Made by a program: the position numbers and the translations under genes. Under the pieces are notes generated by a model, which did no database searches, was not told the origin of the DNA, and worked only from the letters and a program-made list of their open reading frames with translations. 43,318 nucleotides of DNA from Candidatus Woesebacteria bacterium (GTDB taxonomy: Bacteria > Patescibacteriota > Microgenomatia > UBA8517 > UBA10165). Position 1 is the first letter of the stretch. Each line of letters opens with the position of its first letter. Location of the stretch: positions 1 through 43,318 of the forward strand of contig NZCP01000040.1 in NCBI GenBank assembly GCA_002686465.1, given 5' to 3'. This document shows, piece after piece, positions 7,189-35,677 of this stretch.

Positions 7189-7240
7189 TTCAGATTGGCA
7201 GACTTCAGATTTCGGATTGCAGATAGTCAGTTTACAGATT
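7189..7240. repeat. Degenerate ~7-bp tandem array (CAGA core), left flank of four-helix-bundle gene
   Basis: CAGA-like cores at 7191, 7199, 7206, 7213, 7220, 7228, 7235. Confidence 0.8.
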
Positions 7241-7640
7241 TCTTCTTTATGTAACTGTTTGCTGGTTCTGCGAACCTTCTCCATGTTTGGCGTAGGCTGT
7301 TCAGTTGTTTTGATAACTCCGTGTACTTTTCGACGATTGATTCGCATGCACCTTTAGGGATTTTGCGGAATCTGCGAGAGAGAATAATTGCTTTTGTTAA
7401 ATGGATAACAACTTCATCACTTTCTGCCATGGCCATTTCGTAAAATCTAGCCGCATCAGCTGGATTCCTTTGTCTTGAGAAGCCCTCTCCGATCAGTGGA
7501 GGAATGGCCTCGCTTGAGTTTATTAGCTGTGTTCTGAATTTTATATGTGGTATAGCGTATGCCACATCGTAAATTTTATCTAGGAGTCGTAGGGAGAGCT
7601 GATAGACCCGAAGATCGGACACCCCTTTTACTGATGGCAT
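7227..7640 (-). CDS. Four-helix-bundle protein (23S rRNA IVP / bAvd-like family)
   Basis: DLRVYQLS...TQLINSSEAIPPLIGEGFSRQ...RFYEMAMAESDEV resembles the family consensus DL.VWQ...Q..RSA.SI..NIAEG..R...F...A.GS..E. Confidence 0.8.
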   Translation of the reverse strand: MPSVKGVSDLRVYQLSLRLLDKIYDVAYAIPHIKFRTQLINSSEAIPPLIGEGFSRQRNPADAARFYEMAMAESDEVVIHLTKAIILSRRFRKIPKGACESIVEKYTELSKQLNSLRQTWRRFAEPANSYIKKKSVN

Positions 7641-7654
7641 GCATCTATATTATC

Positions 7655-7705
7655 AGATCTGTAGTCTGAGGTCTGATAACAGACAACTGATATCTGTTAA
7701 TCTGG
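7655..7705. repeat. Degenerate ~7-bp tandem array (TCTG core), right flank, inverted relative to 7189-7240
   Basis: TCTG-like cores at 7658, 7665, 7672, 7686, 7693, 7701. Confidence 0.8.
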
Positions 7706-7720
7706 GATTGGCAATTGAAG

Positions 7721-7936
7721 TTATTCTGCTTTTCCCTGCATTCCAAGCACCCAAAGTACTGCTTCTTTTCGATAGCGGCGGTCGCCTCTGGAGTTTATAC
7801 GAATTGCGGGAAGTTTTCCACGCTTGCCCCAACGTTTAATTGTCAACGGGGAGACACGAAGGATTTCTGCGACTTCACGAACAGTCAAAAGGTCCGGAAG
7901 TTCATCGAGTTTTAATTGCCTTTTCCCTTGCGCCAT
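7721..7936 (-). CDS. Excisionase/MerR-type HTH (HTH_17) DNA-binding protein
   Basis: LLTVREVAEILRVSPLTIKRWGKRGKLPAIRINSRGDRRY; likely start ATG 7936. Confidence 0.85.
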   Translation of the reverse strand: MAQGKRQLKLDELPDLLTVREVAEILRVSPLTIKRWGKRGKLPAIRINSRGDRRYRKEAVLWVLGMQGKAE

Positions 7937-8081
7937 AACCCAAAAAAGTGGGCAGTGCTTTCTGATACTCAATGTATCAGAAGGTGAAGAAACATGTCAA
8001 TACCCAGTTTGGGGTAATTTTCAATTTCGAGTCAAAAAGTGGAAAATACTGATACAGGATTGGTATAATTTCTCTACGACG

Positions 8082-8948
8082 ATGGCAAAGTTACTTCTGG
8101 CAAGTTTTGTGGCAGTGAGCCTTTTGTTTGCTGGATCCGTAACCCTGGCCCAAGAGCCGACTACAAACATGGGCAGTGTTGAGTCGGCAACGACTGATGC
8201 ATTGGAACAAAATTTAGTTACTCCTCTTCGCGGCCAGCCCGGGGAACTTACAAACCTTTTAAACTCCCAAGACCCCGGTAGCGTTTTTGCTAACCCTGTC
8301 AAACATGCAATTCGTTCTGCTGTTGACCATGGAGTGGCGGTAGACACAGTTGTTTTACTTTTACTCCTTCCTCTTGTTGCGGCAGTGATTGCAACAGCAC
8401 GTCATCTCGTTGGTATTCAAGGTTTTGGAATTCTTCTGCCGGCAGCGTTATCTGTAGTTTTTGTTTCAACAGGTCCGGTTGTTGGCATTGCGCTGTTTTT
8501 AGTTATTGTAATTGTGGCGACAATCGTGAGGATGTTGCTGCGAAAGTTTAAAATAAGCCTTCAATATCTTCCTAGAATGGCATTTATTTTATGGATGGTT
8601 GTTGTTGGGGTTCTTGCTGCCATGTTTTCCGCGCCTTTCATTTCCGGTCTTAATGTTGCCGACGTTTCGATTTTCCCAGTTCTTATTTTGATTCTTTTAG
8701 CCGAGGACTTTACTCGCGTGCAACTCGGGAAAAGTGTCAGAGTCGCCGTCGCATTAACAACCGAAACTTTGATTCTTGCACTCGCTTCCTTTGTGGTCTT
8801 ACAACTTAGGCCAGTTCAGCACTTTGCGCTTCTTAACCCTGAAATGTTACTTATCTTGGTTGCTATTTTTGACTTCTTTCTAGGAAAATATGCCGGATTG
8901 AGACTGTTAGAACTTTGGCGCTTCAGGAGGCTAATTGGGGCTAGATGA
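8082..8948 (+). CDS. 7TM protein of the 7TM_transglut type associated with ATP-grasp ligases
   Basis: LLLLPLVAAVIATARHLVGIQGFGILLP, LQYLPRMA and IFPVLILILLAEDF motifs; directly upstream of an ATP-grasp gene. Confidence 0.8.
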   Translation: MAKLLLASFVAVSLLFAGSVTLAQEPTTNMGSVESATTDALEQNLVTPLRGQPGELTNLLNSQDPGSVFANPVKHAIRSAVDHGVAVDTVVLLLLLPLVAAVIATARHLVGIQGFGILLPAALSVVFVSTGPVVGIALFLVIVIVATIVRMLLRKFKISLQYLPRMAFILWMVVVGVLAAMFSAPFISGLNVADVSIFPVLILILLAEDFTRVQLGKSVRVAVALTTETLILALASFVVLQLRPVQHFALLNPEMLLILVAIFDFFLGKYAGLRLLELWRFRRLIGAR

Positions 8949-10249
8949 AATTATCTTCAATCTTGGGGCTGAATGCCCGTTTCCAGCTTTATGCGTTTCC
9001 ACACAATACACCGCGTGGTAAAAGCACTGCTGCCTCGAAAGTTTTTACTAAGAAAAAGTTAAACAAAGCAGGGATTCGAACACCAGAAAGCTATGCAGCT
9101 TTCAGAAAACCTAAGAATATTATTGATTTTGACTGGGGTAAGCTGCCAGCGTCGTTTGCATTTAAGCCAAGTGGGGGTTTGGGTGGTGAGGGAATAATCG
9201 TTGTTAAAAAAAGAGCGCGTGATGGTGATGGTTGGATTACAACCCAAAGAAGGAGAGTCACCATCGACGATCTTAAACTTCATGCATTGGATATTTTAGA
9301 GGGTGCATACAACGACAGCAACATTCCGGACGTTGCCTTTTTTGAGGAGTATGTAGGGCGACATAAAGCATTTCGTAAATACGCATATCGAGGCACTCCA
9401 GATATCAGGGTTGTTGTGTTTAACAACGTTCCAGTTATGGCAATGCTTAGACTTCCCACATTAGAATCTAAGGGAAGAGCAAATATTCACCAGGGGGCAA
9501 TAGGGGTTGGTATTGATATTGCAACTGGTATTACAACGCACGCAGTTTGGCATGGAGAGACCATTAAATTTAAACCTGAAACTAAACGGAAGTTGCATGG
9601 CATTAGGATTCCTGATTGGACAGAAATCTTGAAGAGTTCAGTTCATTGCCAAAAAGTATTGAAACTTGGTTATGCTGGAGTTGATGTAATGCTCCATCCG
9701 GACAAGGGACCCATGGTGTCAGAGGTGAATTCTGCACCTGGTCTTGAGATACAACTTGCAAACATGGCGGGCTTAAGAAAACGCTTGGATAGAGTCGAAG
9801 GGCTCAAGGTTAGTAGCGTCGAACAAGGGGTGCAGCTTGCCAAAACTTTATTTGCCTCAGACTTTGCAGTACGAGTTCGGGCAGAAGATGAGGGAGTTAA
9901 AGTTGTCGATGTTTTTGAAGAGGTGAAAGTAAAATCCAAAGGTGGGAAAAAAGTTGCAGTACGAGCAAAGCTTGATACTGGGGCGTGGAGGAGTGCAATC
10001 GACAAAACGTTGGCGAAAGAACTTGGGCTATTGGAAAAAGACAATGTTTTATTAACAAGGCTTGTTCGTAGCGCATTCGGAAGGCAAAAAAGGCAGGTTA
10101 TTGATATAACCTTTTGGCTAAAGGGTCGAAGGATCAGGACCACAGCAGGAGTAGTCAATAGAAAAAGACTTAAAAACTCATTTATAATTGGGCGTCGTGA
10201 CCTTGTTGACTTCTTTGTTGTCCCACAACGAAGACAACGAGCAAATTAA
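8945..10249 (+). CDS. Alpha-L-glutamate-ligase-like ATP-grasp protein (ATPgrasp_ST type) fused to a C-terminal retropepsin-like (RimB-like) protease
   Basis: ILGLNAR, FKPSGGLGGEGI, PDIRVVV, MLRLPT, GRANIHQG, GVDVM, EVNSAPGLEIQLAN; C-terminal AKLDTGAWRSAID...IIGR. Confidence 0.88.
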   Translation: MKLSSILGLNARFQLYAFPHNTPRGKSTAASKVFTKKKLNKAGIRTPESYAAFRKPKNIIDFDWGKLPASFAFKPSGGLGGEGIIVVKKRARDGDGWITTQRRRVTIDDLKLHALDILEGAYNDSNIPDVAFFEEYVGRHKAFRKYAYRGTPDIRVVVFNNVPVMAMLRLPTLESKGRANIHQGAIGVGIDIATGITTHAVWHGETIKFKPETKRKLHGIRIPDWTEILKSSVHCQKVLKLGYAGVDVMLHPDKGPMVSEVNSAPGLEIQLANMAGLRKRLDRVEGLKVSSVEQGVQLAKTLFASDFAVRVRAEDEGVKVVDVFEEVKVKSKGGKKVAVRAKLDTGAWRSAIDKTLAKELGLLEKDNVLLTRLVRSAFGRQKRQVIDITFWLKGRRIRTTAGVVNRKRLKNSFIIGRRDLVDFFVVPQRRQRAN

Positions 10250-10260
10250 TTTAAGAAGCA

Positions 10261-11187
10261 ATGATTAAAAAGAGTGCTGGCAAGATTCTTATTATTACTA
10301 GTGGAAAGGTAGAGAAGCTCGAGCTGTTTTTGGAACCTGCCAAGAAAATGGGTTTGGATTTTACAACCGCTTCCTTTTCCGATCTGGAATATGTTTCCCA
10401 GGGAAAGGACACCGACTTTAAATTACAAGTGGACGGAAAAGATGTTGCAAGTTTTAACCTCATTTATGTTCGTCTTGTTGGGAAAAGCCTAGAGGAGGCT
10501 TCACTTCTTGTTAGTTATGCGAAAGAAAAGGGTGTCAAAGTTATTGATCCAATATATGAGAAATCCCACATTTTGCCTCCTAGTATAAGCAAGGTTATGG
10601 AACTAAAGTATTTGATTCAAGCTAGTGTTCCAATTCCGCCGACGATCTTCGGCAGTCTTGCAAAAATAAAAGAAAAGGGGAAAGCTCTACTTGGCACCCC
10701 ATTTGTTATAAAGAGTACGCAAGGTAGGAGAGGGCGTGAGGTTTGGTCGCCAAAAACACATGATGAGTTTATCCGGTTGATTGAGGACTTGAGTGCGCAA
10801 GAAGAGGATGGCAAGAGATTTTTTGCGCAGAAATTTGTTGCGGCATCACAAAGAATAAGAGTTTTGGTTGTTGGTGGTAAGGCTTTGGCGGCGTTAACTA
10901 TGCCGACAAAATGGAGAAGGAGATTTATTACGAAGGTAGACGGGGAGTATCCAGAAAGGAAACAGGAAAAACTTTCGCCAATCCCGAAAGAAGACGCAGA
11001 GTTAGCACTTGCTGCTGCCCGAGCTGTTTCATTGGACATAGCAGGTGTTGATATTTTGCACGAAGATAAAAGTGACAAGCGATATGTTATTGAAGTTAAC
11101 GCTGCCCCTCGGTGGGAAGCGGTTCGAAGAGATACAGAGATTGACGTTGAAAAAGAAATTTTAGAGTTTCTCGCTAAAGTTTCATGA
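10261..11187 (+). CDS. RimK/LysX-family ATP-grasp ligase
   Basis: VPIPPT, PFVIKSTQGRRGREV, QKFV, RIRVLVVGGK, AGVDIL, IEVNAAP. Confidence 0.85.
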   Translation: MIKKSAGKILIITSGKVEKLELFLEPAKKMGLDFTTASFSDLEYVSQGKDTDFKLQVDGKDVASFNLIYVRLVGKSLEEASLLVSYAKEKGVKVIDPIYEKSHILPPSISKVMELKYLIQASVPIPPTIFGSLAKIKEKGKALLGTPFVIKSTQGRRGREVWSPKTHDEFIRLIEDLSAQEEDGKRFFAQKFVAASQRIRVLVVGGKALAALTMPTKWRRRFITKVDGEYPERKQEKLSPIPKEDAELALAAARAVSLDIAGVDILHEDKSDKRYVIEVNAAPRWEAVRRDTEIDVEKEILEFLAKVS

Positions 11188-11792
11188 TGAACAACAACTA
11201 TCAAAAAAGATTTGCAAAATACGGCGTCGACCCTAAATCTCTAAGTTGGAAAAGCAAAGGGGCTGCACATCAACGGTATCGCCAGATTTGGTCCGAGATC
11301 GACTTCAACGGAAAGAGCGTTTTAGACGTTGGCTGCGGATTTGGAGAAATTGCCACATTTTTGGACAAGAGATATAAAGGCTTTTCCTATACTGGGGTCG
11401 ATGTTATACCGGAGTTTATTTCCGAGGCAAAAAAACTCCACCCAGAACACAAATTTTTTGTCCAGGACTTTTTCAAAGAGCCTCTAGACGATAAATTCGA
11501 TGTTGTTATGGCAAGTGGGGTCTTGAATAGTAATGTTAAAGACAACATTAATTATAGAAAACGCGCGATAAAGCAAATGTTTGATCGCACAAAGAACGTC
11601 TTAGTTTTCAATATGATGGGGGGACATCCAGCGCCGAAAAATAAATCCGGGAATAACATTTGGTATGCAGATTCTTTAGAGGTTCTAAATTACTGCATGA
11701 GTTTAACGCGACGTGTCATTCTACGCCAACATTATCACCCAAGAGACTTTACGATCTTAATGTTTCAGGTGCGTGAGACAGCAACACCGTAG
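11184..11792 (+). CDS. Class I SAM-dependent methyltransferase
   Basis: SVLDVGCGFG, YTGVDV, FDVVMASGVLN. Confidence 0.9.
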   Translation: MMNNNYQKRFAKYGVDPKSLSWKSKGAAHQRYRQIWSEIDFNGKSVLDVGCGFGEIATFLDKRYKGFSYTGVDVIPEFISEAKKLHPEHKFFVQDFFKEPLDDKFDVVMASGVLNSNVKDNINYRKRAIKQMFDRTKNVLVFNMMGGHPAPKNKSGNNIWYADSLEVLNYCMSLTRRVILRQHYHPRDFTILMFQVRETATP

Positions 11793-11824
11793 TATATACT
11801 TAGTATATATCAAGTATATACTAC
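11789..11824. terminator. Inverted repeat between convergent genes; probable bidirectional terminator
   Basis: GTAGTATATACTT (11789-11801) / AAGTATATACTAC (11812-11824), perfect 13-bp stem. Confidence 0.55.
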
Positions 11825-12273
11825 TACTTTAGCTCTACCTTCGCGCCTGCTTCTTCGAGTTTCTTTTTAGCCTCAGCTGCTTCTTCGCTCTTTAAATCTT
11901 TTGCAACTTCTGCCGGAACCTTGTCAGTCATATCTTTTGCTTCTTTAAGTCCCAAATTGGGATCGATTTCTCGAAGCGCTTTAATGACCGAAATTTTATT
12001 TGCTCCTCCATCTGTTAGAACAACTGTTTGAACGGCGGCACTTGCACCTTGCTGTGCTTCGCCTCCATCTGCGGAATCAACTGGTGCTGCAGCTGCTGCT
12101 GCGGGCATAGCACTTACGCCAAGTCTTTCCTGGAGGGATGAAACCAATTCCGAAACTTCAAGAACTGAAAGCTCCTCGATCTCTTTTGCTATTTTTTCAA
12201 GCTTTGGAGAAAGACTTTTGTTTTTTTCTGCCTCGTTTTTATTATCTTTGTTTTCGTCTGTTTGATCAGTCAT
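11824..12273 (-). CDS. rplL: 50S ribosomal protein L7/L12
   Basis: [39 protein letters not shown]; SD GGAGGTGA before ATG 12273. Confidence 0.97.
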
Positions 12274-12294
12274 ATTACTCACCTCCTTAAGTAT

Positions 12295-12390
12295 TAGCTA
12301 ATTTAGCAAATGTAAGCAAAAAGAAAGCAAATATATCGTTTATTCGCTTTTGTTCGCTGAAATTTGTTTGGATTTGCTAGTGTTTTGTGC
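12295..12390. repeat. Inverted pair of ~10-bp periodic arrays (GCNAAT / ATTYGC) spanning the rplJ 3' end
   Basis: Left cores at 12297, 12306, 12316, 12327; right cores at 12342, 12352, 12362, 12372, 12383. Confidence 0.8.
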
Positions 12391-12897
12391 GGCAGATTGC
12401 AGCACAAAAACTAAGTTTTGCATATTTGCCTGCAAGGTTGCTACAAGGGAGTAGGCTGGACCAGCTATAGATCCCACAAGTTGTCCAAATAAGATATTTT
12501 TGGCAGGCAAGCGGGATAGTGCTAAAAGTTTCTCACCATCAAGTATTTCTGCATCAAAAATACCAAACTTCAGCTTTGGTAAGTCATTTTCCTTTTGTGC
12601 CTGACCTAAGACTTGCAAAGGTCCAATTTCGTCTTCCATAGCAAAGACCACAGCGGTTGGTCCAGTCAGTCCTTTATCTATCTTTGATTCAACCTTAACC
12701 TTTGATTTTTTTAATGCGAGCTTAACTAAGGTATTTTTAGCAACTAAAAATATTCCACCAACATCTTTGATTTTTGCCCGTAGTTCACCTAAGTTTTTTG
12801 TTGCGAGACCTTGGTAGTCCACCACGGTTACACTTTTGGCATCTTTTATTCTTGCCGTCAAGTCGTCAACTACTAATGGTTTTTCTGATTTTTTCAT
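12340..12897 (-). CDS. rplJ: 50S ribosomal protein L10
   Basis: VVDYQGL, VAKNTL, LTGPTAVVF, LSRLP; lies between rplA and rplL. Confidence 0.96.
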   Translation of the reverse strand: MKKSEKPLVVDDLTARIKDAKSVTVVDYQGLATKNLGELRAKIKDVGGIFLVAKNTLVKLALKKSKVKVESKIDKGLTGPTAVVFAMEDEIGPLQVLGQAQKENDLPKLKFGIFDAEILDGEKLLALSRLPAKNILFGQLVGSIAGPAYSLVATLQANMQNLVFVLQSAAQNTSKSKQISANKSE

Positions 12898-12934
12898 TTC
12901 TCGTCACTCCGTTACTCGAAACAAGTTTCCTAAA

Positions 12935-13068
12935 AGCAAAAAACCTCGGGTTTACCGAGGCTGTCTTTACCAAGCAACTTGTTACTTAAAACATGTTACC
13001 TGTTACTAGATTGTGCCTCGGTAGGAAATTAATCTCGGCCAATCGGCCAGAACCTACTGTCTTCGGGA
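12935..13068 (-). promoter_or_regulatory. Ribosomal protein L10 leader with terminator hairpin
   Basis: Minus strand CCGAAGACAGTAGG...TAATTTCCTACCGAGG...CCTCGG-TAAAC-CCGAGG-TTTTTT upstream of rplJ; promoter TTGCAT-18-TAGAAT at 13110-13081. Confidence 0.85.
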
Positions 13069-13116
13069 TCTTTGAGTGCAATTCTACAGCATCTACACCA
13101 GAGAATGCAATATTTA

Positions 13117-13938
13117 CTACGCTACAGCTATTTTTATTCCTGGTCCCATTGACGCAGAAATAACAGCCTTTTTTACTTTTTTGGAACCTATAGCTTCAAT
13201 CACAGCTTTTATATTTTCCGATATTTCGCGTCCTGGCTGATTTGTTTTACCAATAGTGGTATGGATTAAAGGTGCGTCTTTTTGGGTTTTTAGACTTATA
13301 GAATTACCACCAAACTTCTTTTTTGCCTGCTCCGGATTTTCTGTAATTGTTCCCTGCTTGGGGTTAGGCATAAGACCACGGGGACCCAGGGTTTTGGCAA
13401 ACGGTACCAACTTCGGCATCATTGCAGGTGACGCAAGTAAGACATCAAAGTCAATTTTCCCCTTTTTTAGTTTTTCAACTGTTTTCTCATCCGCAATTTC
13501 GATTTTCTTCTTTGTGCCTGTGGAGTGAGGGAGTTCTGTTTGTGTATTAATACCTTCCTTGCCAACAACTAAGTGCAGTTCAACAGAACCAGGGAAGGCC
13601 GAAAACGAGGTTTTCTGAACTAACGTTGCAGCCTCGGAAGGCGTGTAGGTTTTGGCAGGGTCAACCTTTGCACGAGCGGCTAGATATTTCTTGCCAACAT
13701 GCTTTGGTTCTTTAGCCTTCTTTTCTTCCTTTTCGGGTTGTGACGCTTCTGTTTCTTCCTCAACTGGTGTTTCACCACCTACAACTACAACACGTTCTCC
13801 ACCCTTGAGCCCGGGAATATGAACCCCTTTTTCCTCCCGCTGGCTTCTTTTTTTCTGCCGGCTAGCGGATTCCTTTTTTGTCTCTTGCTCGGAAGAATCT
13901 GCACCTTCATTAATTACTGTAATTTTTGTTTTACCCAT
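13117..13938 (-). CDS. rplA: 50S ribosomal protein L1 (N-terminal extension, internal deletions)
   Basis: FPGSVELH, LPHSTG, DFDVLLASP, LGPRGLMPNPKQGT, SASMGPGIKI. Confidence 0.95.
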   Translation of the reverse strand: MGKTKITVINEGADSSEQETKKESASRQKKRSQREEKGVHIPGLKGGERVVVVGGETPVEEETEASQPEKEEKKAKEPKHVGKKYLAARAKVDPAKTYTPSEAATLVQKTSFSAFPGSVELHLVVGKEGINTQTELPHSTGTKKKIEIADEKTVEKLKKGKIDFDVLLASPAMMPKLVPFAKTLGPRGLMPNPKQGTITENPEQAKKKFGGNSISLKTQKDAPLIHTTIGKTNQPGREISENIKAVIEAIGSKKVKKAVISASMGPGIKIAVA

Positions 13939-13966
13939 GTTTGTTTCTAATAAACAAGCTTTGTTT

Positions 13967-14713: not shown

Positions 14714-14716
14714 GAC

Positions 14717-16847: not shown

Positions 16848-17008
16848 AGCAGGGGTGGAGGGAATAAGTCTACCTTTGCTTTGCAAACGATCTTGATCCT
16901 TCCACTATTTAGATGAACAAACTGCAAAAATGCAGCCTGTTTTAACTAGCAGGGGTGGAGGGAATAAGTCTACCTTTGCTTCGCAAACGATCTTGATCCC
17001 TCCACTAT
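16848..17008 (-). repeat. Two 61-bp direct repeats (59/61 identical) each carrying the 17 nt at the 3' end of the tRNA-Trp locus
   Basis: 16848-16908 and 16948-17008; GCAGGGGTGGAGGGAAT recurs at 16849, 16949 and 17049. Confidence 0.95.
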
Positions 17009-17049
17009 ATACAAATATTTCAGACACAACGGTCTGAAATATCCGTATG

Positions 17050-17120
17050 CAGGGGTGGAGGGAATCGAACCCCCGTTACCGGTTTTGGAGACCGGTGTCC
17101 TACCACTGAACGACACCCCT
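17050..17120 (-). tRNA. tRNA-Trp (CCA)
   Basis: AGGGGTG...CCGGT-CTCCAAA-ACCGG...GGTTCGATTCC...CACCCCTG cloverleaf. Confidence 0.97.
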
Positions 17121-17150
17121 AGATAAAAGTTCAAAACTCAAAAGTCAAAA

Positions 17151-17324
17151 CTATTTCAACTTCTGTCTTTCTTTATGCTCTGTTTGTTTACGACACCTTC
17201 GGCAAAACTTACGCAAGGTAAGTTTACCTTCCATGTTTGTCTTGTTTTTTTCAGTTATATAATTCTGACTTTTACAATCAGAACAAACTAATCCATAAAG
17301 TTGTCTTCCACCTCTTTTAGCCAT
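17151..17324 (-). CDS. rpmG: 50S ribosomal protein L33 (Zn-ribbon type)
   Basis: Own translation: MAKRGGRQLYGLVCSDCKSQNYITEKNKTNMEGKLTLRKFCRRCRKQTEHKERQKLK; SD AAAGGAG. Confidence 0.96.
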   Translation of the reverse strand: MAKRGGRQLYGLVCSDCKSQNYITEKNKTNMEGKLTLRKFCRRCRKQTEHKERQKLK

Positions 17325-22348: not shown

Positions 22349-22585
22349 ATGGCTATATGTAACAGTTGTGGGAAAGGGTCTATGCGAGGTAGTCGTATTT
22401 CTCACGCACACAATGTCAGTAAACGTGTTTTTAAACCAAACCTTCACAGTTTTTGGATGGTTGAAGGCGGTCACCGCACGCGAAAAAAGTTTTGTACGAA
22501 GTGTTTGAGGAAAGTTAAGAAAGAGGTATTACAAGTATCAAAAGTACCACAGGTATCAAAGGCTCAGAATATTGCTTCAGGATAA
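22349..22585 (+). CDS. rpmB: 50S ribosomal protein L28 with repeat-derived C-terminal tail
   Basis: CNSCGK...ISHAHNVSKRVFKPNL...CTKCLR. Confidence 0.95.
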   Translation: MAICNSCGKGSMRGSRISHAHNVSKRVFKPNLHSFWMVEGGHRTRKKFCTKCLRKVKKEVLQVSKVPQVSKAQNIASG

Positions 22586-25867: not shown

Positions 25868-27913
25868 TCATTTTGAGAGTTTCTCTAGCTTATTTTGTAC
25901 TTCCTCATCATCAGGGTCAATATTCTGCAAAACATATTCTAGCTGCTCTCGGGCAAGAGCTTGTTTTCCTAAGGAGTCATAAATTGTTGCAAGCCCAACT
26001 CGACCATCATAGTAGTTTGGTTTGAGGGTTACAGATTCTTCGAGCACTTCTTCTGCCCGCTCAATTTGCCCTAAGCGACCATATAAAACTCCTAAGTTGT
26101 AGCGAACCTTTGGATCGGTCGGAGCAAGCTCGACAGCTTTTTCGAGAACAGGTAGGGCTTCGTGCAGATATTGCTGATCAACTTGGACGAGTCTATATAG
26201 GATAGTAACTCGAGACTTCAAAAGATTTAAATTGTATGGGGAGATGGTAGTGGCATATCTAGAAGCTTCATTGGCTAGTTGCGCGGATGCACCGTCGCCT
26301 TTCTCTTCCAGTTCGAGTGCGATACTAGATGTAATTTTTGCAAGCTGGTCATAGTATCTTGGCTCATCTGTTCGGAGAGATAACGCACTTTCTATTCTTT
26401 CCAGGGACAGAGCATACGATCCCTCTGTAGCTAAATTTTTAGACTTTGTAAAAAGTACATCAGCGTACCAGACATGAAAGACTTTTAGTAACAGGTAACA
26501 TGTAACAAGTATCAGCAGTAGGATGCTAGCGATTTGAAGGATGGAGAATTTTTTGTTTCTACTTGTTACTTCTAACTTGTCACTTGTTACCGACCATGCC
26601 AAAGCAGGAAAGAGGAAAAATAGTATAGCGACATTGACGACCGAGAAACCAAAAAAGTTGGTAATTAAAATGGAAGCATGTCCTGCAAGCAGTGCAGGTA
26701 AAAGATTCTGGCCCGATCGAAGTCTTGAGGCTATCAACCACACAGTTGCCCCAATAAAAATGAGGTATGAGACCAAGCCAAATGTTCCTGTTGTTGCTGC
26801 AAAGTTTAGATATTCGTTGTGCGCTTTGTTATAGAGGAAGTCCCATTCGGAAGTAAGGTTATGCTCAACTGGTCGAAATTGATAATAGGAGTAGGCGAAT
26901 GTCTCAACGCCGGTTCCTGTAAGGGGATATGCTCGCCAAGTGTTAATTGCACCGTTCCATACAATCTTTCGGATTTCCCCGGATTCTGTTCCTCCGGTCT
27001 CCAACACGGTCCCCGTGTTGGGATGATTTACGGTTGGTGGTTTACGATTAATATTATTTTGTATGACTTCTGTTGCACTTGGGGTCCAGGGAGTTCCGAA
27101 AATAGTAACAAGTAACAAGTAGAAAGTGATAAGTAATAGGAAAGGGCGAGTTAGTATTTTAAGGCGATCTTTATACAACCAGGCCATAGTTAACCAAAAA
27201 ACAGCGAAGGATGCTCCAAAGCCGAGTAGTCCTGAGCGGCTTTTTGTAAATAAAATTGCTGTGAAGAAAATAATAGACATACCAATCCACCACCATTTCT
27301 TTTTAGAAATTGCAAATGCCCAAGTGATTGGAATAATAGCTGTAAGCCATGCTGCGAACCAATTCGGCTGACCCAAAGTTGCAAAGATTCGCTCTTGAAC
27401 TTTTTGTACCCAGCAGTCGACCCCAAATTCTTTTTTCATGATAATGCAACTAGGACTTGATCCGAGACGTTCTGCAATTCCCCAAATGGAAACAATTAGT
27501 GCCGAAGCGAGCAGATTACGTATTGCGCTCCTTGTCTCCTGTTTTCCCATATTTGAGACAAACGCCCAGTAAAGAAAAAGGTAGGAAATCGTTGATAGTA
27601 ATCCGCCATGCGATCGAGAGTGATATCCCCAGATAGATGTATGCTGATCAATTGAAAAAACAGTGGAGATGATTTGCGCGGTTAAAAAAAGCAAAAGAGG
27701 AATATCAAGAATAGTGCGCCGAAAGATCAGTTTTCCCCCAAGGATAGATTTTATTGCCCAGGAGGCCGTAATTACGACCGTAATTACGTACGTTAGAATC
27801 ATTTTGTTAAATTCAAAAAGCTCAGAAGTTAGAGGGGTAAAGATGAAGGGGACAAGAAAAAAAAGAAGATAAAAGGAAGATTTGATAATTCTGTCTGCTG
27901 CTTGGAATAACAT
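25868..27913 (-). CDS. O-antigen ligase-like membrane protein with C-terminal TPR repeats
   Basis: Many TM helices; RIFATLGQPN, TKSRSG, GTGVETF, KAHNEYL; TPR (AVELAPTDPKVRYNLG). Confidence 0.9.
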   Translation of the reverse strand: MLFQAADRIIKSSFYLLFFLVPFIFTPLTSELFEFNKMILTYVITVVITASWAIKSILGGKLIFRRTILDIPLLLFLTAQIISTVFSIDQHTSIWGYHSRSHGGLLSTISYLFLYWAFVSNMGKQETRSAIRNLLASALIVSIWGIAERLGSSPSCIIMKKEFGVDCWVQKVQERIFATLGQPNWFAAWLTAIIPITWAFAISKKKWWWIGMSIIFFTAILFTKSRSGLLGFGASFAVFWLTMAWLYKDRLKILTRPFLLLITFYLLLVTIFGTPWTPSATEVIQNNINRKPPTVNHPNTGTVLETGGTESGEIRKIVWNGAINTWRAYPLTGTGVETFAYSYYQFRPVEHNLTSEWDFLYNKAHNEYLNFAATTGTFGLVSYLIFIGATVWLIASRLRSGQNLLPALLAGHASILITNFFGFSVVNVAILFFLFPALAWSVTSDKLEVTSRNKKFSILQIASILLLILVTCYLLLKVFHVWYADVLFTKSKNLATEGSYALSLERIESALSLRTDEPRYYDQLAKITSSIALELEEKGDGASAQLANEASRYATTISPYNLNLLKSRVTILYRLVQVDQQYLHEALPVLEKAVELAPTDPKVRYNLGVLYGRLGQIERAEEVLEESVTLKPNYYDGRVGLATIYDSLGKQALAREQLEYVLQNIDPDDEEVQNKLEKLSK

Positions 27914-29043: not shown

Positions 29044-29078
29044 CCTTTTCCACAAGACGTATATACGCCGCCAAAAAG

Positions 29079-29106: not shown

Positions 29107-29112
29107 ACTCCT

Positions 29113-30180: not shown

Positions 30181-30186
30181 GAAGAG

Positions 30187-30456
30187 TTAGAAGAGATTAA
30201 ACTTTCTTTCTTCGTTCTTGGGTCTTTTCGATATTGCACGAGTTGTCTTTCTGTAGACAAACTCAAGACAGCCTGTCATTACAGCAAGGCCGAAAATACT
30301 ATCTGCGTATATTTTCTTGGCTGTTCCAGTCCCCCTGCCGGATATCAGATCCTGATCAGCACTTTCTCCAATCTCAGATGCATGACCTATCATTTCTTCT
30401 GCTAAGAAAGTTTTTCTTGAACCTGGTTTTCTGACTTCGATTTGTTCAACGCTCAT
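30187..30456 (-). CDS. Hypothetical protein
   Basis: 89-aa ORF; TATAAT 7 nt before ATG. Confidence 0.6.
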   Translation of the reverse strand: MSVEQIEVRKPGSRKTFLAEEMIGHASEIGESADQDLISGRGTGTAKKIYADSIFGLAVMTGCLEFVYRKTTRAISKRPKNEERKFNLF

Positions 30457-30524
30457 TTCTTCTGATTATAGTCTTCGCCCACATGGCTGTCAAAACATCT
30501 GGCGTTGCGTGGTAAAATGTTTGC

Positions 30525-31328
30525 ATGACAACTTCTAAGAAGAGTCCATACTCCTTGGCCATTGTTTATCTTCTTTTGGCAGTGCTTTTGTATTTTCTGG
30601 ATTCGCGGGGAACTTTGGGATCTGTACACAGTGCTACCCAGGCATTAACCACTCCTGTTCGAAGTTTTCTTTTTAACACAAAACAAAATATTCTTTCCCC
30701 ACTTTCTGTGTTTTCTGATTCTAGCAAGCAAGAACAAAGGGTAAAAGAGCTTGAAGAAAAGAATGCCTCGCTTTCTGCGCAACTGGCAAAGTTGACTGGA
30801 CTTCAAGAGGAAAACGAAAAGATGCGACGCCTTTTGGGCACTGATCTTCCACCTTCTTGGCAGTTTGCGACGGCTCGCGTGGTGACGGTTACAGCGGATA
30901 CACTCGTTCTCACAAGCGATCACGCTCCTCAAGATGATACTTCTGTGATTACCACCAAAGAATCTGGAATTTTTGTAGGTAGAGTTCAGGAGGTTAAGGG
31001 AAAAGAAGTTCAGATATTGTTGCCAAGTCATTCTTCATCAAAAATCCCGGTTATTGTGCGAGATTCTGAAAGTGGTTTGCGTCAAGCTTCTGGAATTGGT
31101 GTTGGTCGAGGAGGAAGGGCGGTCTTAGAGCAAGTATTGACTAGCGAGCAAATTAAAGAAGGAGATTTGATTTTAACTTCCGGAGAAGGAGGAGTGCCGG
31201 AAGAACTTCTTCTTGGCTACGTCGCGGAAGTTTCTAGGGTAGAGGGTGCCGCTTGGCAACAAGCAGAAATAAAAAGCGCAGTTGACTTAGATGACCTAGA
31301 TTTTGTATTTTTTGTTACTAAGTTTTAG
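30525..31328 (+). CDS. mreC: Rod shape-determining protein MreC
   Basis: TM, coiled coil LQEENEKMRRLL, GDLILTSGEGGVPEELLLGYV; context. Confidence 0.92.
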   Translation: MTTSKKSPYSLAIVYLLLAVLLYFLDSRGTLGSVHSATQALTTPVRSFLFNTKQNILSPLSVFSDSSKQEQRVKELEEKNASLSAQLAKLTGLQEENEKMRRLLGTDLPPSWQFATARVVTVTADTLVLTSDHAPQDDTSVITTKESGIFVGRVQEVKGKEVQILLPSHSSSKIPVIVRDSESGLRQASGIGVGRGGRAVLEQVLTSEQIKEGDLILTSGEGGVPEELLLGYVAEVSRVEGAAWQQAEIKSAVDLDDLDFVFFVTKF

Positions 31329-31331
31329 CTA

Positions 31332-31757
31332 ATGTCGGCAAATTTATTTTTGTTACTATCTTTGATCTTCTCCCTTTTACAAGGCTCTTTTTTGCCTCCT
31401 GTTTTAGTAGAAGGAGCGATTGTTCTTCTGGTAGTTCTAGCCGCCCCTCCTCGTCAAGCGTTTCTTGCACTTTTTGCAGGCGGTATAATCTTTGATCTTG
31501 TTCAATCCCAAACCTTAGGTTTGACGTCTCTTGTTTTCTTATTGAGTGGAGTTGCTATTCTTGCTATGCGGGATCAACTGCCACTCCAAAAGCCTATTGT
31601 TGCAGGGGTCGTTGCGGCTCTTGTTACACTTGTGCGGGCAAAGGTTGTTTTTGCAAGCTTTCTTTTTGCACCCTCCGTTGTTGTAGGACTTTTGACCATC
31701 CTGATATTCCTGTTTGTTTGGCAGCCGCTATCCAGTAGTAGGATTAGACTTCAATAA
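31332..31757 (+). CDS. mreD: MreD-like membrane protein
   Basis: Hydrophobic; GGIIFDLV...LGLTSL; between mreC and PBP2. Confidence 0.7.
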   Translation: MSANLFLLLSLIFSLLQGSFLPPVLVEGAIVLLVVLAAPPRQAFLALFAGGIIFDLVQSQTLGLTSLVFLLSGVAILAMRDQLPLQKPIVAGVVAALVTLVRAKVVFASFLFAPSVVVGLLTILIFLFVWQPLSSSRIRLQ

Positions 31758-33523
31758 TGAGAAAATATCAGAAACTTGGACCTGTTTTTGGGGAGAGGAT
31801 TACAAGGGGAGGAGTTTTTAGGAAACATCAAAGTTCTAAATATTCTCCGCGCTGGGTAATACTTGCAGGAGTTCTTGTAGTCTCGATCTTGATCGGGATT
31901 GCCCGACTGGTCGATTTGCAAATTATTCGAGGATCGTACTTCAAAGCTTTGGCTGAAGGAAATCGCGTTCGGCACATCCCAATTAAGGCCCCAAGGGGGG
32001 AAATATTGGATACGGCAGGCCATGCCCTTGCCCGTAATATCCCCGTTTATAAGCTAGCTACTTTTTCGGAAGGCGGAGTGGTTGTAGAAACCGAAGGTAT
32101 ATCTCGCGAAGAGGCTTTACTTATCCAAGCCTCAGATCCTGAAAGATCTGGGAGAATTTTGGTAGACATTGGGAGAGAATATCCACTTGGGGTAGCAGCT
32201 GCCCATGTTGTCGGTTATGTTAATGAAGCAGCTCCGGAAGAAGTTGGGGAGTCACCTAATTGTGACTTAAGGTCTAGAACGCCGTATGCACTTGGCGATC
32301 TTGTTGGGCGAATAGGTATTGAGGCTCAATATGAATGTATTTTGCGAGGAGTAAATGGCGAAGAATTAATTGAAGTTGACTCGCAAGGACGTTTGATCAG
32401 GCGATTAGGTCGACGCGAGCCGATCTCAGGAACCAGTATTACGCTCTCTATATATAGTAGTCTCCAAGAAGCCTCATATCAGGCACTAATTGATGCACCG
32501 AATGAAGAGGGGACCAGACCGGCGCGCGAGGATGGAATAACCGTGCGCGGGGCTGTTGTTGCACAAGACCCCCGAACTGGCGAGGTTCTATCACTTGTAT
32601 CTGTTCCGTCGTTTGACCCTGCGCGCTTGGGGGAAAAATACGAGGAATATAAAAGGGATGAAAATTTGCCATTTTTCAACCGTGCTATTGGGGGGGCGTA
32701 TGCCCCGGGGTCAACTTTTAAGATTGCTGTCGCAGCAGCCAGCCTTGAGGAGGAAAAAATTAATGAGGACTATGAGTATGAGGATAAAGGTATTATCACT
32801 GTCAACGATTTTTCGTACAGAAATTGGTATTTTACTCAATACGGCCGAACAGAGGGATTCATAAAAATTGTTCGAGCAATAACGCGTTCAACCGATACGT
32901 TTTTCTATAAAGTTGGGGAACTTGTCGGGGTTGACAGCTTGGGTGATTGGGCAGGAAAATTTGGGTTAGGGAAGCTGGCTGGAATTGATCTTCCCGGGGA
33001 AAAAGCAGGACTAGTGCCCACTCCTGAGTGGAAACAAGAAGTAAAAGGTGATCGGTGGTATCTGGGGAACACTTACCATTTGAGTATTGGACAGGGAGAT
33101 ATATTGACCACACCGCTGCAGGTAAACATGATGGCTGGCGTTATAGCCGCTGGTGGTAAATTATGTGTTCCTAATGTGTTGAAGGATGATGCGTCACAAG
33201 ATGATAAATGCGAAGAAGTAGGAGTAAAGGATGAAACGATTAAGCTGATTACAGAAGGGATGGTTGGGGCGTGTAGCTTGGGAGGGACGGCATATCCGTT
33301 ATTTACATTCGAACCTAAGGTAGCGTGTAAAACAGGGACTGCAGAGTTTGGAGGTAGTGACAAAACACATGCCTGGCTAACTGCGTTTGCACCCGCCTTC
33401 GCCGAGGCTTCGGCGGGCAAGCCAGAGATTGCAGTAACTGCTTTGGTTGAGGGAGGCGGGGAAGGATCCCGAGTTGCTGCACCAGTAGTGAAAAAAGTTC
33501 TAGAGGAGTGGTTTAGTAAGTAG
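31757..33523 (+). CDS. mrdA: Penicillin-binding protein 2 (class B transpeptidase)
   Basis: APRGEILD, PGSTFK (SxxK), STD (SxN variant), KTGTAE. Confidence 0.93.
   Translation: MRKYQKLGPVFGERITRGGVFRKHQSSKYSPRWVILAGVLVVSILIGIARLVDLQIIRGSYFKALAEGNRVRHIPIKAPRGEILDTAGHALARNIPVYKLATFSEGGVVVETEGISREEALLIQASDPERSGRILVDIGREYPLGVAAAHVVGYVNEAAPEEVGESPNCDLRSRTPYALGDLVGRIGIEAQYECILRGVNGEELIEVDSQGRLIRRLGRREPISGTSITLSIYSSLQEASYQALIDAPNEEGTRPAREDGITVRGAVVAQDPRTGEVLSLVSVPSFDPARLGEKYEEYKRDENLPFFNRAIGGAYAPGSTFKIAVAAASLEEEKINEDYEYEDKGIITVNDFSYRNWYFTQYGRTEGFIKIVRAITRSTDTFFYKVGELVGVDSLGDWAGKFGLGKLAGIDLPGEKAGLVPTPEWKQEVKGDRWYLGNTYHLSIGQGDILTTPLQVNMMAGVIAAGGKLCVPNVLKDDASQDDKCEEVGVKDETIKLITEGMVGACSLGGTAYPLFTFEPKVACKTGTAEFGGSDKTHAWLTAFAPAFAEASAGKPEIAVTALVEGGGEGSRVAAPVVKKVLEEWFSK
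33392..33421. repeat. GC-rich palindromic REP-like element in frame within PBP2
   Basis: CCCGCCTTCGCCGAGGCTTCGGCGGGCAAG, encoding PAFAEASAGK. Confidence 0.65.
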
Positions 33524-33532
33524 TATATACTA

Positions 33533-33892
33533 TTATAATTTGATGCATTCTCCGCTTGCATCGGGATAATTTCCGTCAAGTTGGCATTTATAGCCTTTTG
33601 GGCACTGGTATTCAGGAAGATTTGCAGCTATTCCTCCACAAAACTTCCTTTCTACACCATCTGTATCGTCTGGTGGGTCCATCTTTTTAATCTGGATTTT
33701 CTTATACAAAGTTTGCGCAATCGATGGGTTCCAGCCTAGGGTTAGTTCTCTTGGGCACGGCGGGCACTGATTAGGATATACCATCGGGCAAGCACAAGTT
33801 GTTTGTTCGTAACGAAAGGGAATTGGTGCAAAAAATGCGGCAAGTATTAGTGTGGTAACCAGAATAGGGATTAGAGTCAAACCCTTTTGCAT
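33533..33892 (-). CDS. Small Cys-rich exported protein
   Basis: MQKGLTLIPILV pilin-like/signal start; CACP..CPPCP and FCGGIA..CPKGYKC..GEC. Confidence 0.75.
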   Translation of the reverse strand: MQKGLTLIPILVTTLILAAFFAPIPFRYEQTTCACPMVYPNQCPPCPRELTLGWNPSIAQTLYKKIQIKKMDPPDDTDGVERKFCGGIAANLPEYQCPKGYKCQLDGNYPDASGECIKL

Positions 33893-34077
33893 AGATCTAC
33901 ATTATATCACTCTTAGAGGTGGTACCAGTTAAGAATTCACGGCGAGTGAAAACTAGTGTTTTAGGATTTTCAACCACATGGCATGATAGCCTTTTTGAGG
34001 CTGAAAATCAACCTATAGCATAGCATGAAACCTGTGTGCAATGTGGCTTTACACCGTGAATATGCTATCGTATTTGT

Positions 34078-35205
34078 ATGACAGAACGCGAATCATGGAT
34101 TGCATTTAGTGCGTTTCCACAGATAGGACCTGCACGTTTCACGCTGATTAAGAAATATTTTGGTAATGCAAAAAAAGCATGGAAAGCACCGATAGGGGAA
34201 TATATAAAAATAGGGTTTAGCAAAAAGTTAGCAGACAGTTTTGAGAAGTTCAGAAAAGAAAAATTCGACATCGGGTCGTATTTAGTCCAGTTAGACAAAC
34301 TTGGTATACAGGTCTTAAGGTATGATGATACTGATTACCCAGAAAGGCTAAAAAAGATTGATGATTCGCCATATATCTTATACGTCAGGAAATCTCTAAA
34401 AAGTATCAGAAGTATTAAAAATACCATAGATATCAAAGGCCTGTCTGACGTATCCGTGGCAGTGGTTGGGACGAGAAAGATGACATCATATGGACGCGAA
34501 GTTACAGAAAGATTGGTAACAGAGTTAGTAAACGCAGGGGTTACGATCATTAGTGGGCTTGCATTGGGAATTGATAGTGTTGCACATAGAACTGCGATAG
34601 ATACGGGAGGGCGAACAATCGCAGTTTTAGGTGGTGGATTGGACGAAATTTACCCTCCGTCTAATCGACAGCTAGCAGCCGAGATACTTGGAAAAGATCG
34701 AGGACTTCTGTTATCCGAATATCCATTATTTTATCCATCTATGCCCCAAAACTTCCCTGTCAGAAACCGTATAGTTTCCGGTCTTTCGCAAGGTATTGTA
34801 GTTGTTGAGGGCATGAAGAAATCGGGTACTCTTTTGACTGCATCGAGTGCTGCCTCCCAAGGAAGAGAGGTATTTGCGGTTCCTGGACCTATTACATCCC
34901 CTACATCACAAGCGCCGAATTTTTTGATTAGACAGGGTGCTAAGCTTGTTGAGAGTGCAGAGGATATTCTTGAGGAATTGAAAATCGAATCTAGAGTTGT
35001 GAAGATGGAAGCTAGAAAGGTAATTCCTGAGACGAAAGAAGAGAAGAAACTCTTGAAGGTTTTGGAGACAGAAGGGTTAGATATTGATACTATTGTTAGA
35101 ATGAGTGGTTTGCAAGCAGGAGTTGTGCTGGGTACACTGACGCAAATGGAGCTTAAAGGCTTAGTGCGGAACATGGGAGGTATATATCGCACTAATAGCG
35201 AATAG
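34078..35205 (+). CDS. dprA: DNA-processing protein DprA (Smf)
   Basis: VAVVGTR, ISGLALGIDSVAH, FPVRNRIVSG, REVFAVPG, C-terminal winged helix. Confidence 0.97.
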   Translation: MTERESWIAFSAFPQIGPARFTLIKKYFGNAKKAWKAPIGEYIKIGFSKKLADSFEKFRKEKFDIGSYLVQLDKLGIQVLRYDDTDYPERLKKIDDSPYILYVRKSLKSIRSIKNTIDIKGLSDVSVAVVGTRKMTSYGREVTERLVTELVNAGVTIISGLALGIDSVAHRTAIDTGGRTIAVLGGGLDEIYPPSNRQLAAEILGKDRGLLLSEYPLFYPSMPQNFPVRNRIVSGLSQGIVVVEGMKKSGTLLTASSAASQGREVFAVPGPITSPTSQAPNFLIRQGAKLVESAEDILEELKIESRVVKMEARKVIPETKEEKKLLKVLETEGLDIDTIVRMSGLQAGVVLGTLTQMELKGLVRNMGGIYRTNSE

Positions 35206-35240
35206 AGCAAATTAAAGCTAATGAGCACGAATAAAAGCAT
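35190..35240. repeat. ~10-bp periodic array (GCNAAT), left flank of GxxExxY gene
   Basis: Cores GCGAAT 35198, GCAAAT 35207, GCTAAT 35217, ACGAAT 35227. Confidence 0.8.
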
Positions 35241-35619
35241 GGAACGAATAATATACCCTCGATTATCGTATAAAGTGGTTGGGGTTTTGTTCGATGTGCA
35301 CCGCAAGCTTGGGAACAGGTTGCAAGAGAAATATTACCAGCGAGCTATTGCTTTGGGATTCAAGAAGGCAAATATTCCATTTAAAGAACAGGCGTTAGTC
35401 CAACTGGAGTACGAGAGCGAGCCCATTGGGCGATATTTTGTTGACTTTGTAATTAGTAATAAGATAGCCTTGGATATTAAAGCTGTACCCAAGACTAGCA
35501 AGCATGATTACGATCAAATGCTTGCTTATTTGCATGTTTTAAAGTTAAAGTTAGGTGTCATTGCAAATTTTAGAGCGCAGAATCTGACTTTTAAAAGATT
35601 GGTCAATTCCAGAATTTGA
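35221..35619 (+). CDS. GxxExxY protein (PD-(D/E)XK nuclease-like); start 35221 or 35239
   Basis: VHRKLGNRLQEKYYQRA, YFVDFVISNKIALDIKA, QMLAYL, LGVIANF. Confidence 0.92.
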   Translation: MSTNKSMERIIYPRLSYKVVGVLFDVHRKLGNRLQEKYYQRAIALGFKKANIPFKEQALVQLEYESEPIGRYFVDFVISNKIALDIKAVPKTSKHDYDQMLAYLHVLKLKLGVIANFRAQNLTFKRLVNSRI

Positions 35620-35677
35620 ATTTGTACTATTTGCTTAAATTCGTTAAAATTTGCTGTTATTTGCTGGTAAATTCATT
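35618..35677. repeat. ~10-bp periodic array (ATTYGC), right flank, inverted relative to the left flank
   Basis: Cores ATTTGT 35620, ATTTGC 35629, ATTCGT 35639, ATTTGC 35649, ATTTGC 35659. Confidence 0.8.

Follow-up and report, generated by a model that had tools for sequence, protein, structure and literature searches.

Two small, unrelated genes in the genome of a Candidatus Woesebacteria bacterium (assembly GCA_002686465.1) each lie between two arrays of a short, degenerate unit, the second array being the inverse of the first, which raises the question of what kind of element this arrangement represents. Both genes are found on contig NZCP01000040.1 (C40), which we analysed over its whole length of 43,318 nucleotides and refer to as the window. 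One encodes a four-helix-bundle (FHB) protein of the 23S rRNA intervening-sequence (IVS) protein family, the other a GxxExxY protein of the PD-(D/E)XK superfamily. A first-pass annotation of the window had pointed to an array–gene–inverted array architecture common to the two genes; we find it in both, with arms that are cognate within each element, and the architecture and the complementarity of its cognate arms are conserved family-wide in several phyla. We consider it very probable that these objects are hairpin cassettes of an IVS-like kind. Their host is a bacterium of the candidate phyla radiation (CPR)/Patescibacteria type with a genome of ~0.9 Mb (901,573 bases in 59 contigs, 42% G+C), and the genomes of its relatives span 0.6–1.2 Mb.

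The two cassettes of the window

The FHB gene belongs to its family by both available profiles (PF05635, 47.6 bits against a cut-off of 33.8, with residues 9–115 on profile positions 2–106; TIGR02436, 46.6 bits against a cut-off of 24). Single-sequence searches of the PDB returned nothing useful; a profile built from 29 family members matches entries 2gsc and 2rld, each deposited with five chains. At the 3′ side of the gene, CAGAY cores start at positions 7191, 7199, 7206, 7213, 7220 and 7235, the arm running over the last codons and the stop codon, and at the 5′ side RTCTG cores start at 7657, 7664, 7671, 7692 and 7700. The inverted heptamer arrays (period 7) earlier described around this gene are borne out by these cores and by Tandem Repeats Finder (TRF). 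When the cassette is folded as RNA, its ends pair in both the minimum-free-energy (MFE) and the centroid structure (z −1.29). A tblastn search of the host genome with the small proteins of the window found only the genes themselves, and a later profile search gave four PF05635 copies. Synteny around the FHB gene is not kept in relatives, and a comparison at the orthologous site was hence uninformative.

Family membership of the GxxExxY gene, which lies between dprA and topA, is equally clear from its profiles (PF13366, 96.5 bits against a cut-off of 22; TIGR04256, 98.9 bits against a cut-off of 35). Inspected by eye, the protein keeps the E and Y of the name-giving motif and has R at the G position (RLQEKYY); its putative nuclease-motif residues are the D in VDFV and the D, I and K in ALDIKA. 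Upstream, AGC-type cores at 35197, 35206 and 35216 go on into the first codons of the gene. Downstream, TTYGY cores are found at 35621, 35630, 35640, 35650 and 35660. The flanks contain a 34-nt inverted pair that is 74% complementary, and in the RNA fold the arms enclose the whole open reading frame (ORF) in both MFE and centroid structures (z −2.21; 3 of 100 shuffles fold as well). For this copy, the predicted inverted arrays with cores of ~10 nt spacing are therefore confirmed (AGCRAAT/ATTYGCT). An array that had been listed at dprA does touch the last dprA codons, and proves to be the left arm of this cassette, which starts there. A role in defence was considered for the two genes and is unsupported: PADLOC gave no match for the FHB protein and a weak Cas4 match (E 0.0018) for the GxxExxY protein.

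Table 1 Cassettes, arms and gene-less arrays located in the window
Feature	Positions	Strand	Evidence and remarks
FHB gene, 23S rRNA intervening-sequence protein family, 137 aa	7227–7640	−	PF05635, TIGR02436 matches
Downstream (3′) arm, FHB cassette	7185–7242		TRF period 7, 8.0 copies; six CAGAY cores, spacing 7–8 nt
Upstream (5′) arm, FHB cassette	7641–7712		Five RTCTG cores, the reverse complement of the 3′-arm core
Gene-less hairpin rplJ/rplL	12283–12392		AGCWAAT-type ×4, then ATTYGCT-type ×4, spacing 10–11 nt; TRF
YTGTTAC ×3 upstream of rplJ (L10 leader)	12955–13012		Sequence reading; one arm, irregular spacing
TCAAAAS heptamer array, rpmG/tRNA-Trp spacer	17119–17155		TRF; single arm
Period-9 array, C-terminal tail of L28 (rpmB)	22533–22560		TRF score 35; weak
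YTTGTTAC heptamer array in fmt variable loop	22682–22733		TRF, orthologue comparison
Gene-less heptamer hairpin, O-antigen-ligase-like ORF	26483–26593		GTAACAR arm, spacer, YTGTTAC arm; TRF; fold z −2.87
Second GTAACAA-type heptamer array, ligase-like ORF	27094–27144		TRF; single arm
Upstream arm, GxxExxY cassette (AGCGAAT, AGCAAAT, AGCTAAT, AGCACGAAT)	35190–35240		Core positions, inverted pair
GxxExxY/PD-(D/E)XK-superfamily gene, 132 aa, between dprA and topA	35221–35619	+	PF13366, TIGR04256
Downstream arm, GxxExxY cassette	35616–35680		Five ATTTGCT-type cores, spacing 9–10 nt; end at topA start codon

Cognate flanks across the two gene families

Matches to PF05635 occur in 40 of 61 relatives, with four in this genome and up to 16 per genome elsewhere (in a genome of 1.1 Mb). 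Across 30 loci from relatives, the self-identity of the flanks at lag 7 was 0.54 upstream and 0.49 downstream, against 0.32–0.39 at all other lags from 3 to 13; seven was the best lag for 19 upstream and 18 downstream flanks out of 30 each, with a preference for eight in several of the rest. With one near-duplicate set aside, comparing each upstream flank with the reverse complement of its own downstream flank gave a mean cognate score of 24.5, compared with 14.2 for 812 non-cognate pairs and 14.1 for the direct orientation. Of the 29 loci, 18 lay above the 95th percentile and 13 above the 99th. Eighty further FHB loci from named CPR genomes (Gottesman-, Levy-, Davies- and Shapirobacteria, Parcubacteria, Saccharibacteria and Peribacteria, with some otherwise labelled records) behave in the same way, with lag-7 identities of 0.56/0.53 and a cognate mean of 25.95 against 16.2. 

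The flanks also set these genes apart from their surroundings. In CPR bacteria, 107 FHB genes have a mean score of 25.5 and 243 neighbouring ORFs from the same loci one of 15.0, with 59 of the 107 exceeding the neighbours' 95th percentile; because kin are not independent, we place no weight on the p-value of this comparison. Thirty of 104 loci have a 5-mer core that occurs at least three times in each arm, a number that falls to 5 of 104 for mismatched arms. Cognate arms are predicted to form an RNA duplex of −26.2 kcal/mol, non-cognate ones a duplex of −16.6. Cognate inverted flanks are a property of the gene families, not of chance. The simplest alternative would deny any functional link, with heptamers arising everywhere by polymerase slippage and the small genes just sitting in array-rich intergenic DNA. 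Heptamers are indeed the commonest intergenic periodic repeat in prokaryotes, for which slippage has been proposed (accessible text of PMC6344855 and PMC4692102), and arrays occur both in genomes without FHB genes and at many gene-less sites. However, slippage by itself would not turn one flank of a gene into the reverse complement of the other, which disfavours this explanation, as do the neighbouring ORFs without inverted flanks, the poor agreement of mismatched arms and the recurrence of the design in at least four phyla and in rRNA, described below; we regard it as highly improbable.

GxxExxY genes are rarer than FHB genes, being found in 8 of 61 relatives and in 40 of 301 genomes of the phylum. 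At 36 loci, their cognate arms score 24.9 against 16.2, with 14 of 36 above the 95th percentile and a score of 19.3 for the direct orientation. Their cores, recurrently of CGGAT, CGAAT or CAAAT type, are loosely spaced over 6–10 nt and the lag profile is nearly flat. Among five GxxExxY plasmid loci, that of Bacteroides finegoldii has a clear cognate pair (period 9; score 45) and that of Treponema a single 11-nt inverted repeat, and the other three differ. The earlier proposal that each family has its own spacing is borne out, sharply 7 nt for FHB genes and broadly 6–10 nt for GxxExxY genes; a fixed 10 bp fits the GxxExxY copy of the window rather than its family.

In FHB loci the best shared 4-mer core recurs at 7 nt in 309 of 514 cases and at 14 nt in 55, and the arms abut the start and stop codons. 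The unit itself is not constant across loci. It is shared only where two FHB proteins are at least 70% identical (24.8, compared with about 14), and protein identity correlates with arm similarity (Spearman 0.30, a value reached in none of 500 permutations). These properties bear on a second explanation, in which the encoded protein binds its own flanking units, as DNA or RNA, for autoregulation, protection or propagation, and gene-less arrays are further binding sites. A pentameric FHB ring would then read the 7-nt register, and the nuclease-fold GxxExxY protein units about one helical turn apart. Family-specific spacing (7 nt in FHB loci, 6–10 nt in GxxExxY loci), arms that abut the codons at either end and the sharing of units between similar proteins all speak for such binding, and so do the recurrence of a CGGAT/ATCCG-type core beside GxxExxY genes in CPR, Treponema and Gemmatirosa and a Nostoc preprint whose accessible text proposes a protein partner for heptamer repeats (10.1101/2022.06.06.494920). 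On the other hand, the units of paralogues in one genome differ widely (CAGAYNN and GTAACAR), and each paralogue would therefore need its own specificity; shared descent alone would yield the correlation between protein and arm; and arrays are present in relatives in which no FHB gene was detected (G002, G017, G020). Among relatives, the relation of array density to FHB copy number is weak (0.55 against 0.35 per kb, p 0.16), in loci that were chosen around sites with arrays in this genome. Binding of the arrays by their own proteins is, on balance, a possible but not a likely explanation.

Two further observations concern the FHB loci. The upstream arm closes all three reading frames by stop codons in 70 of 105 loci, compared with an expected 39%, and the downstream mirror of this test is near expectation (42 of 105 against 35%); we do not build on this result. 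In one relative (G011, contig C1; L030/L214), the FHB gene lies directly upstream of fmt.

Gene-less arrays, plasmids and ribosomal RNA

Arrays of the same kind are not confined to the two gene families; gene-less hairpins with the same cores are scattered over intergenic spacers, ORFs and the helix tips of 23S rRNA. The whole genome contains 134 period-7 arrays, against 44.8 in triplet shuffles. Comparison with codon-preserving shuffles, in which a lack of excess had been named as a refutation, gives an excess in 915 coding-sequence interiors for period 7 (75 against 29.4), with further excesses at period 10 (12 against 3.8), period 11 (4 against 1.7) and period 12; TRF shows no excess at period 10 (40 against 41.8). 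Phase-variable simple-sequence repeats have near-perfect units with copy-number polymorphism; the units here are degenerate (64–86% matches), and contigs from four DNA sequencing runs, all short and of low depth, contained no joint at the cassettes. A few units recur at many sites: GTAACAR/YTGTTAC, CAGATNT/ATCTG, TCAAAAG/CTTTTGA and GTTAACA, many of them forming short-loop hairpins. The first two are also the arms of FHB genes on contigs C12, C57 and C40. Pairing arrays by their TRF consensus gave four inverted and three direct pairs, the method being too insensitive, and a strict hairpin scan, despite a real excess (34 against 5 at a score of at least 28), mostly retrieved ordinary terminator-like hairpins and misses degenerate array hairpins. 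On contig C50 (L066), a pilin-like gene (N_methyl, T2SSG) has separate CRGAT/ATCYG heptamer hairpins in both flanking spacers, at 255–350 and 790–885.

The window, whose core genes are secE-nusG-rplKAJL, four tRNAs, rpmB, fmt, def, an O-antigen-ligase-like gene, mreBC, PBP2, dprA and topA, contains nine period-7 arrays. The gene-less arrays that had been listed at rplJ/rplL, the L10 leader, rpmG/tRNA-Trp, fmt and the ligase gene are all found (Table 1), while that at rpmB is unconvincing and may be an ordinary peptide repeat. The cores that flank the GxxExxY gene recur in the rplJ/rplL hairpin, whose right arm codes for the C-terminal residues of L10; only 2 of 200 shuffles fold as well (z −2.73). 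The array beside tRNA-Trp has no partner arm and forms no hairpin (fold z +0.48). In the ligase-like ORF, the hairpin is in frame, between the Wzy_C and TPR parts. Gene-less arrays do shape the coding sequence of core genes, in the C-terminal tail of rplJ, a linker in the ligase ORF and a loop of fmt. That the fmt array is an insertion is not supported: it adds zero net length relative to 13 orthologues, several of which have other arrays of 7–8 nt, both at that site and in a second loop. In relatives (L209–L221), the two variable loops of the fmt C-terminal domain carry arrays of 7–8 nt that differ between genera, some with inserts of 8–14 residues.

Other repeats and ORFs of the window stand apart from these arrays. 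Two 64-nt direct repeats (16848–16911 and 16948–17011; 95% identical, 100 nt apart) adjoin tRNA-Trp, and the first ~17 nt of each match the 3′ end of that gene; ARAGORN and Rfam called no RNA at these repeats. Between a convergent methyltransferase gene and rplL, a period-11 palindromic array (TAGTATATACT ×3; 11790–11822) is probably a shared terminator-like hairpin. An AT-rich palindromic array of period 12/24 (TAATTAAC...GTTAATTA) occupies the spacer of two minus-strand ORFs at 4866–4926. The rplA ORF (13117–13938) is 273 aa long and the L1 profile covers residues 152–266 only, and in the rplL ORF (11824–12282) about 26 residues precede the L12 N-domain; these extra lengths are either over-long ORF calls or lineage-specific extensions.

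Beyond CPR bacteria, a plasmid tblastn search with one CPR FHB protein gave 44 records, mostly from Nostoc and other cyanobacteria, from which we analysed 14 loci of cyanobacterial, Bacteroidota and Azospirillum plasmids. Nine of the 14 have cognate inverted arrays with a score of at least 25, and lag 7 was best for 10 upstream and 11 downstream flanks, with lag 8 in two loci. The arm units of the Nostoc plasmid genes (GGGAACA/TGTTCCC and GGGAAAA/TTTTCCC) resemble the heptamers of cyanobacterial STRR (short tandemly repeated repetitive) sequences. On a Pseudanabaena plasmid (L229), the FHB gene is flanked by near-perfect direct heptamers, AAAAGCT about 12 times upstream and AAAAGCC about 10 times downstream. 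This gene and those of two more cyanobacterial plasmids (L238, L239) lie inside CRISPR-Cas operons, at cas6|cas4, at cas10|cmr3 and before cas4.

The Azospirillum plasmid locus (L241) is a 23S rRNA gene whose helix-45 loop is enlarged by an insert of about 460 nt, inside which an FHB ORF lies between CAGAGGA/CGGAGGA and CCGTCYT/CTGTCWT heptamer arrays. A classical IVS thus shares the periodic-arm design, which is found in at least four phyla and in rRNA. The host's own 23S rRNA gene (contig C33, L155, 6129–8573) spans 2445 nt for model positions 1–2028, so about 400 nt are extra; the inserts examined are heptamer hairpins of 100 and 111 nt, which replace 2-nt loops at helix tips and are very stable (fold z −7.6 and −5.6). 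A partial FHB gene is located at the start of the same contig.

This distribution brings in a third explanation, a mobile element at the level of DNA. The inverted arrays would be the terminal repeats of a small selfish element, autonomous when it carries a gene, with the GxxExxY nuclease fold as homing or excision enzyme, and the gene-less hairpins would be non-autonomous or decayed copies resembling miniature inverted-repeat transposable elements (MITEs). A few unit families each occupy more than 20 sites in a 0.9 Mb genome, a 1.1 Mb genome holds up to 16 FHB matches, and cassettes are wedged into operons (cas6|cas4, cas10|cmr3, radA|next gene). The dprA–topA junction, which here contains the GxxExxY gene, measures −2 to 5 nt in 6 of 23 relatives; the others have arrays or hairpins of quite different units, and the gene is present in none. 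A mobile origin of IVSs has also long been suspected in the literature (PMC4990558, accessible part). The distribution of the cassettes makes mobility plausible; what the copies have in common argues against this account. As with MITEs and repetitive extragenic palindromic (REP) sequences, many short palindromes are dispersed in intergenic DNA and gene-less forms outnumber gene-carrying ones, but the copies here share a repeated core of 4–7 nt and not their loops, ends or boundaries; no conserved ends or cognate transposase were seen, and no target-site duplication was noticed, although no systematic search was made for one.

Enzymes of mobility were equally lacking: a Pfam scan of 50 window ORFs matched no transposase and no reverse transcriptase, and PF00078 (reverse transcriptase) had no match in the whole genome (90.6% complete), in agreement with what had been read from the window. 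No catalytic activity is known for FHB proteins. Avd of diversity-generating retroelements, a nucleic-acid-binding pentamer, is a homologous four-helix bundle; unlike such a retroelement, this genome has no PF00078 match at its 90.6% completeness and no template/variable repeat pair, and its genes stand alone. In fmt, the array brings no extra length and orthologues have different arrays at that loop, which looks like turnover in place more than insertion, and since different arrays are found at the same dprA–topA and fmt sites, arrays turn over quickly at permissive sites. The suggestion that gene-less arrays are remnants of gene-carrying forms is not supported, as they far outnumber those forms and occur in relatives with no detectable FHB gene; nor is mobility as first suggested, since gene-less copies share the core motif only and no presence/absence pair was found. 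We consider a DNA-level mobile element unlikely.

Probable hairpin cassettes and their known relatives

The reading we prefer is that the cassettes are IVS-like hairpins whose design is related to that of the cyanobacterial STRR sequences. Each would consist of a long imperfect stem whose two strands are arrays of one short, degenerate unit in inverted orientation (7 nt for FHB, about 8–10 nt for GxxExxY genes), closed by a loop that is either short, in the gene-less form, or holds one small ORF. The arms may pair in the transcript, and RNase III, for which the genome encodes a gene, may cut the stem as in rRNA IVSs. Such cutting would let a cassette sit between the genes of an operon or in rRNA without disabling them, and would free the small ORF as a separate RNA. 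The arrays presumably grow, shrink and turn over by slippage, with selection on pairing keeping the arms complementary; fast turnover would account for phase being kept in short cores alone and for units that differ between lineages. That the objects belong to this kind seems to us very probable; the RNA stem and its cleavage, proposed by analogy with IVSs, are somewhat more doubtful than not, and for the explanation as a whole, RNA step included, we see the balance as even.

Several observations weigh against this reading. Pairing is as good in antisense as in sense transcripts (62 against 42 loci; p 0.17), so that RNA has no advantage over DNA as the level at which the arms pair. If the arms were a generic RNase III stem, their unit length would not need to be family-specific, a feature better explained by a protein that reads the array. 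The FHB cassette of the window folds only marginally beyond shuffles (z −1.29; 14 of 100 fold as well), and its arms are on the weak side (score 19, rank 46 of 853 genes). Many arrays are single-armed, among them those of fmt, tRNA-Trp and the L10 leader. Arms also depart from the design in individual loci: both arrays of the Pseudanabaena locus L229 are direct, a single arm is clear in L231 and in L235, L237 has no arm, and a Fusobacteria GxxExxY locus carries direct repeats.

The closest known relatives of the cassettes are the 23S rRNA IVSs and the cyanobacterial STRR sequences, neither of which the first-pass annotation had named. In Coxiella, RNase III cuts the 28-bp stem of the IVS, whose loop contains an S23p ORF (PMC4990558, accessible text), and PF05635 ORFs occur in CPR rRNA inserts (PMC11270868, likewise). 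The IVSs of Coxiella, Leptospira, Brucella and Alphaproteobacteria share with our elements the PF05635 ORF family and its place in a loop whose stem is made by terminal inverted repeats; such repeats also enclose an ORF in the window cassettes. They are inserted at existing helix tips with host function tolerated, a location shared by the gene-less hairpins of this genome's 23S rRNA and by L241, where the arms are likewise heptameric. By contrast, the window cassettes lie between protein-coding genes, a second, unrelated family (GxxExxY) uses the design, and the RNase III cut is a prediction. Periodic IVS arms are not mentioned in the accessible text of PMC4990558 or PMC11270868.

STRR heptamers have been known from cyanobacteria since 1990 and were first defined in heterocyst-forming species, whereas the host here is of CPR type; Vioque reportedly described an STRR inside a structured RNA gene in 1997. 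They are tandem 7-nt units in intergenic DNA, can form hairpins between operon genes, comprise few unit types per genome and have no known function (PMC2670836, accessible text). The arrays described here equally consist of 7-nt tandem units of a few types that recur genome-wide in hairpin-forming pairs, and such units flank the FHB genes on Nostoc plasmids. STRR sequences, however, have been described as repeats rather than as arms of gene cassettes, and the arrays here, in a CPR host, are more degenerate.

Heptameric simple-sequence repeats are over-represented more widely (in Xanthomonas and Nostoc, and as TAACTGA in Beggiatoaceae), with an intergenic bias and their function left open in the accessible text (PMC6344855, PMC4692102, PMC4679880), and a survey of 7006 genomes found "no clear clue" to that function (PMC6344855, same extent). 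They have in common with our arrays the period of 7, the intergenic bias and occasional inverted pairs, but those reported are mostly direct, often near-perfect and upstream of genes. A text search of heptamer-repeat papers found no mention of S23, intervening, four helix or GxxExxY. In full texts, with few subscription journals and main texts only, we found no paper that links PF05635 or GxxExxY genes to flanking periodic arrays or that notes periodic IVS stems. Heptamer repeats are themselves known; IVS/STRR-type elements as gene cassettes outside rRNA, and a second gene family with the same design, appear to be new.

Taken further, FHB proteins could be the trans-acting partners of prokaryotic heptamer repeats, a pentameric ring taking its 7-nt register from the arms of the hairpin that encodes it, and GxxExxY proteins readers of units of ~9–10 nt, the two together forming selfish hairpin cassettes that seed arrays, with IVSs, STRR sequences and the excess of heptamers sharing one origin. 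We hold this to be unlikely; if true, arrays would have been seeded into operon junctions, rRNA helix tips and protein loops. At the level of architecture, three puzzles that are usually kept apart, namely the origin of IVSs and their S23p ORF, the function of STRR sequences and the excess of heptamers, are tied together, and two abundant, uncharacterised families of small proteins become concrete candidates for the protein partner of the repeats, alongside a testable model of RNA processing. For reduced genomes, short-period arrays written into conserved genes, such as the tail of L10, the loops of fmt and the helices of rRNA, matter for the annotation and alignment of CPR sequences. Since the pattern is found in very distant bacteria, it may contribute to an explanation for the abundance of heptamer repeats in bacterial DNA.

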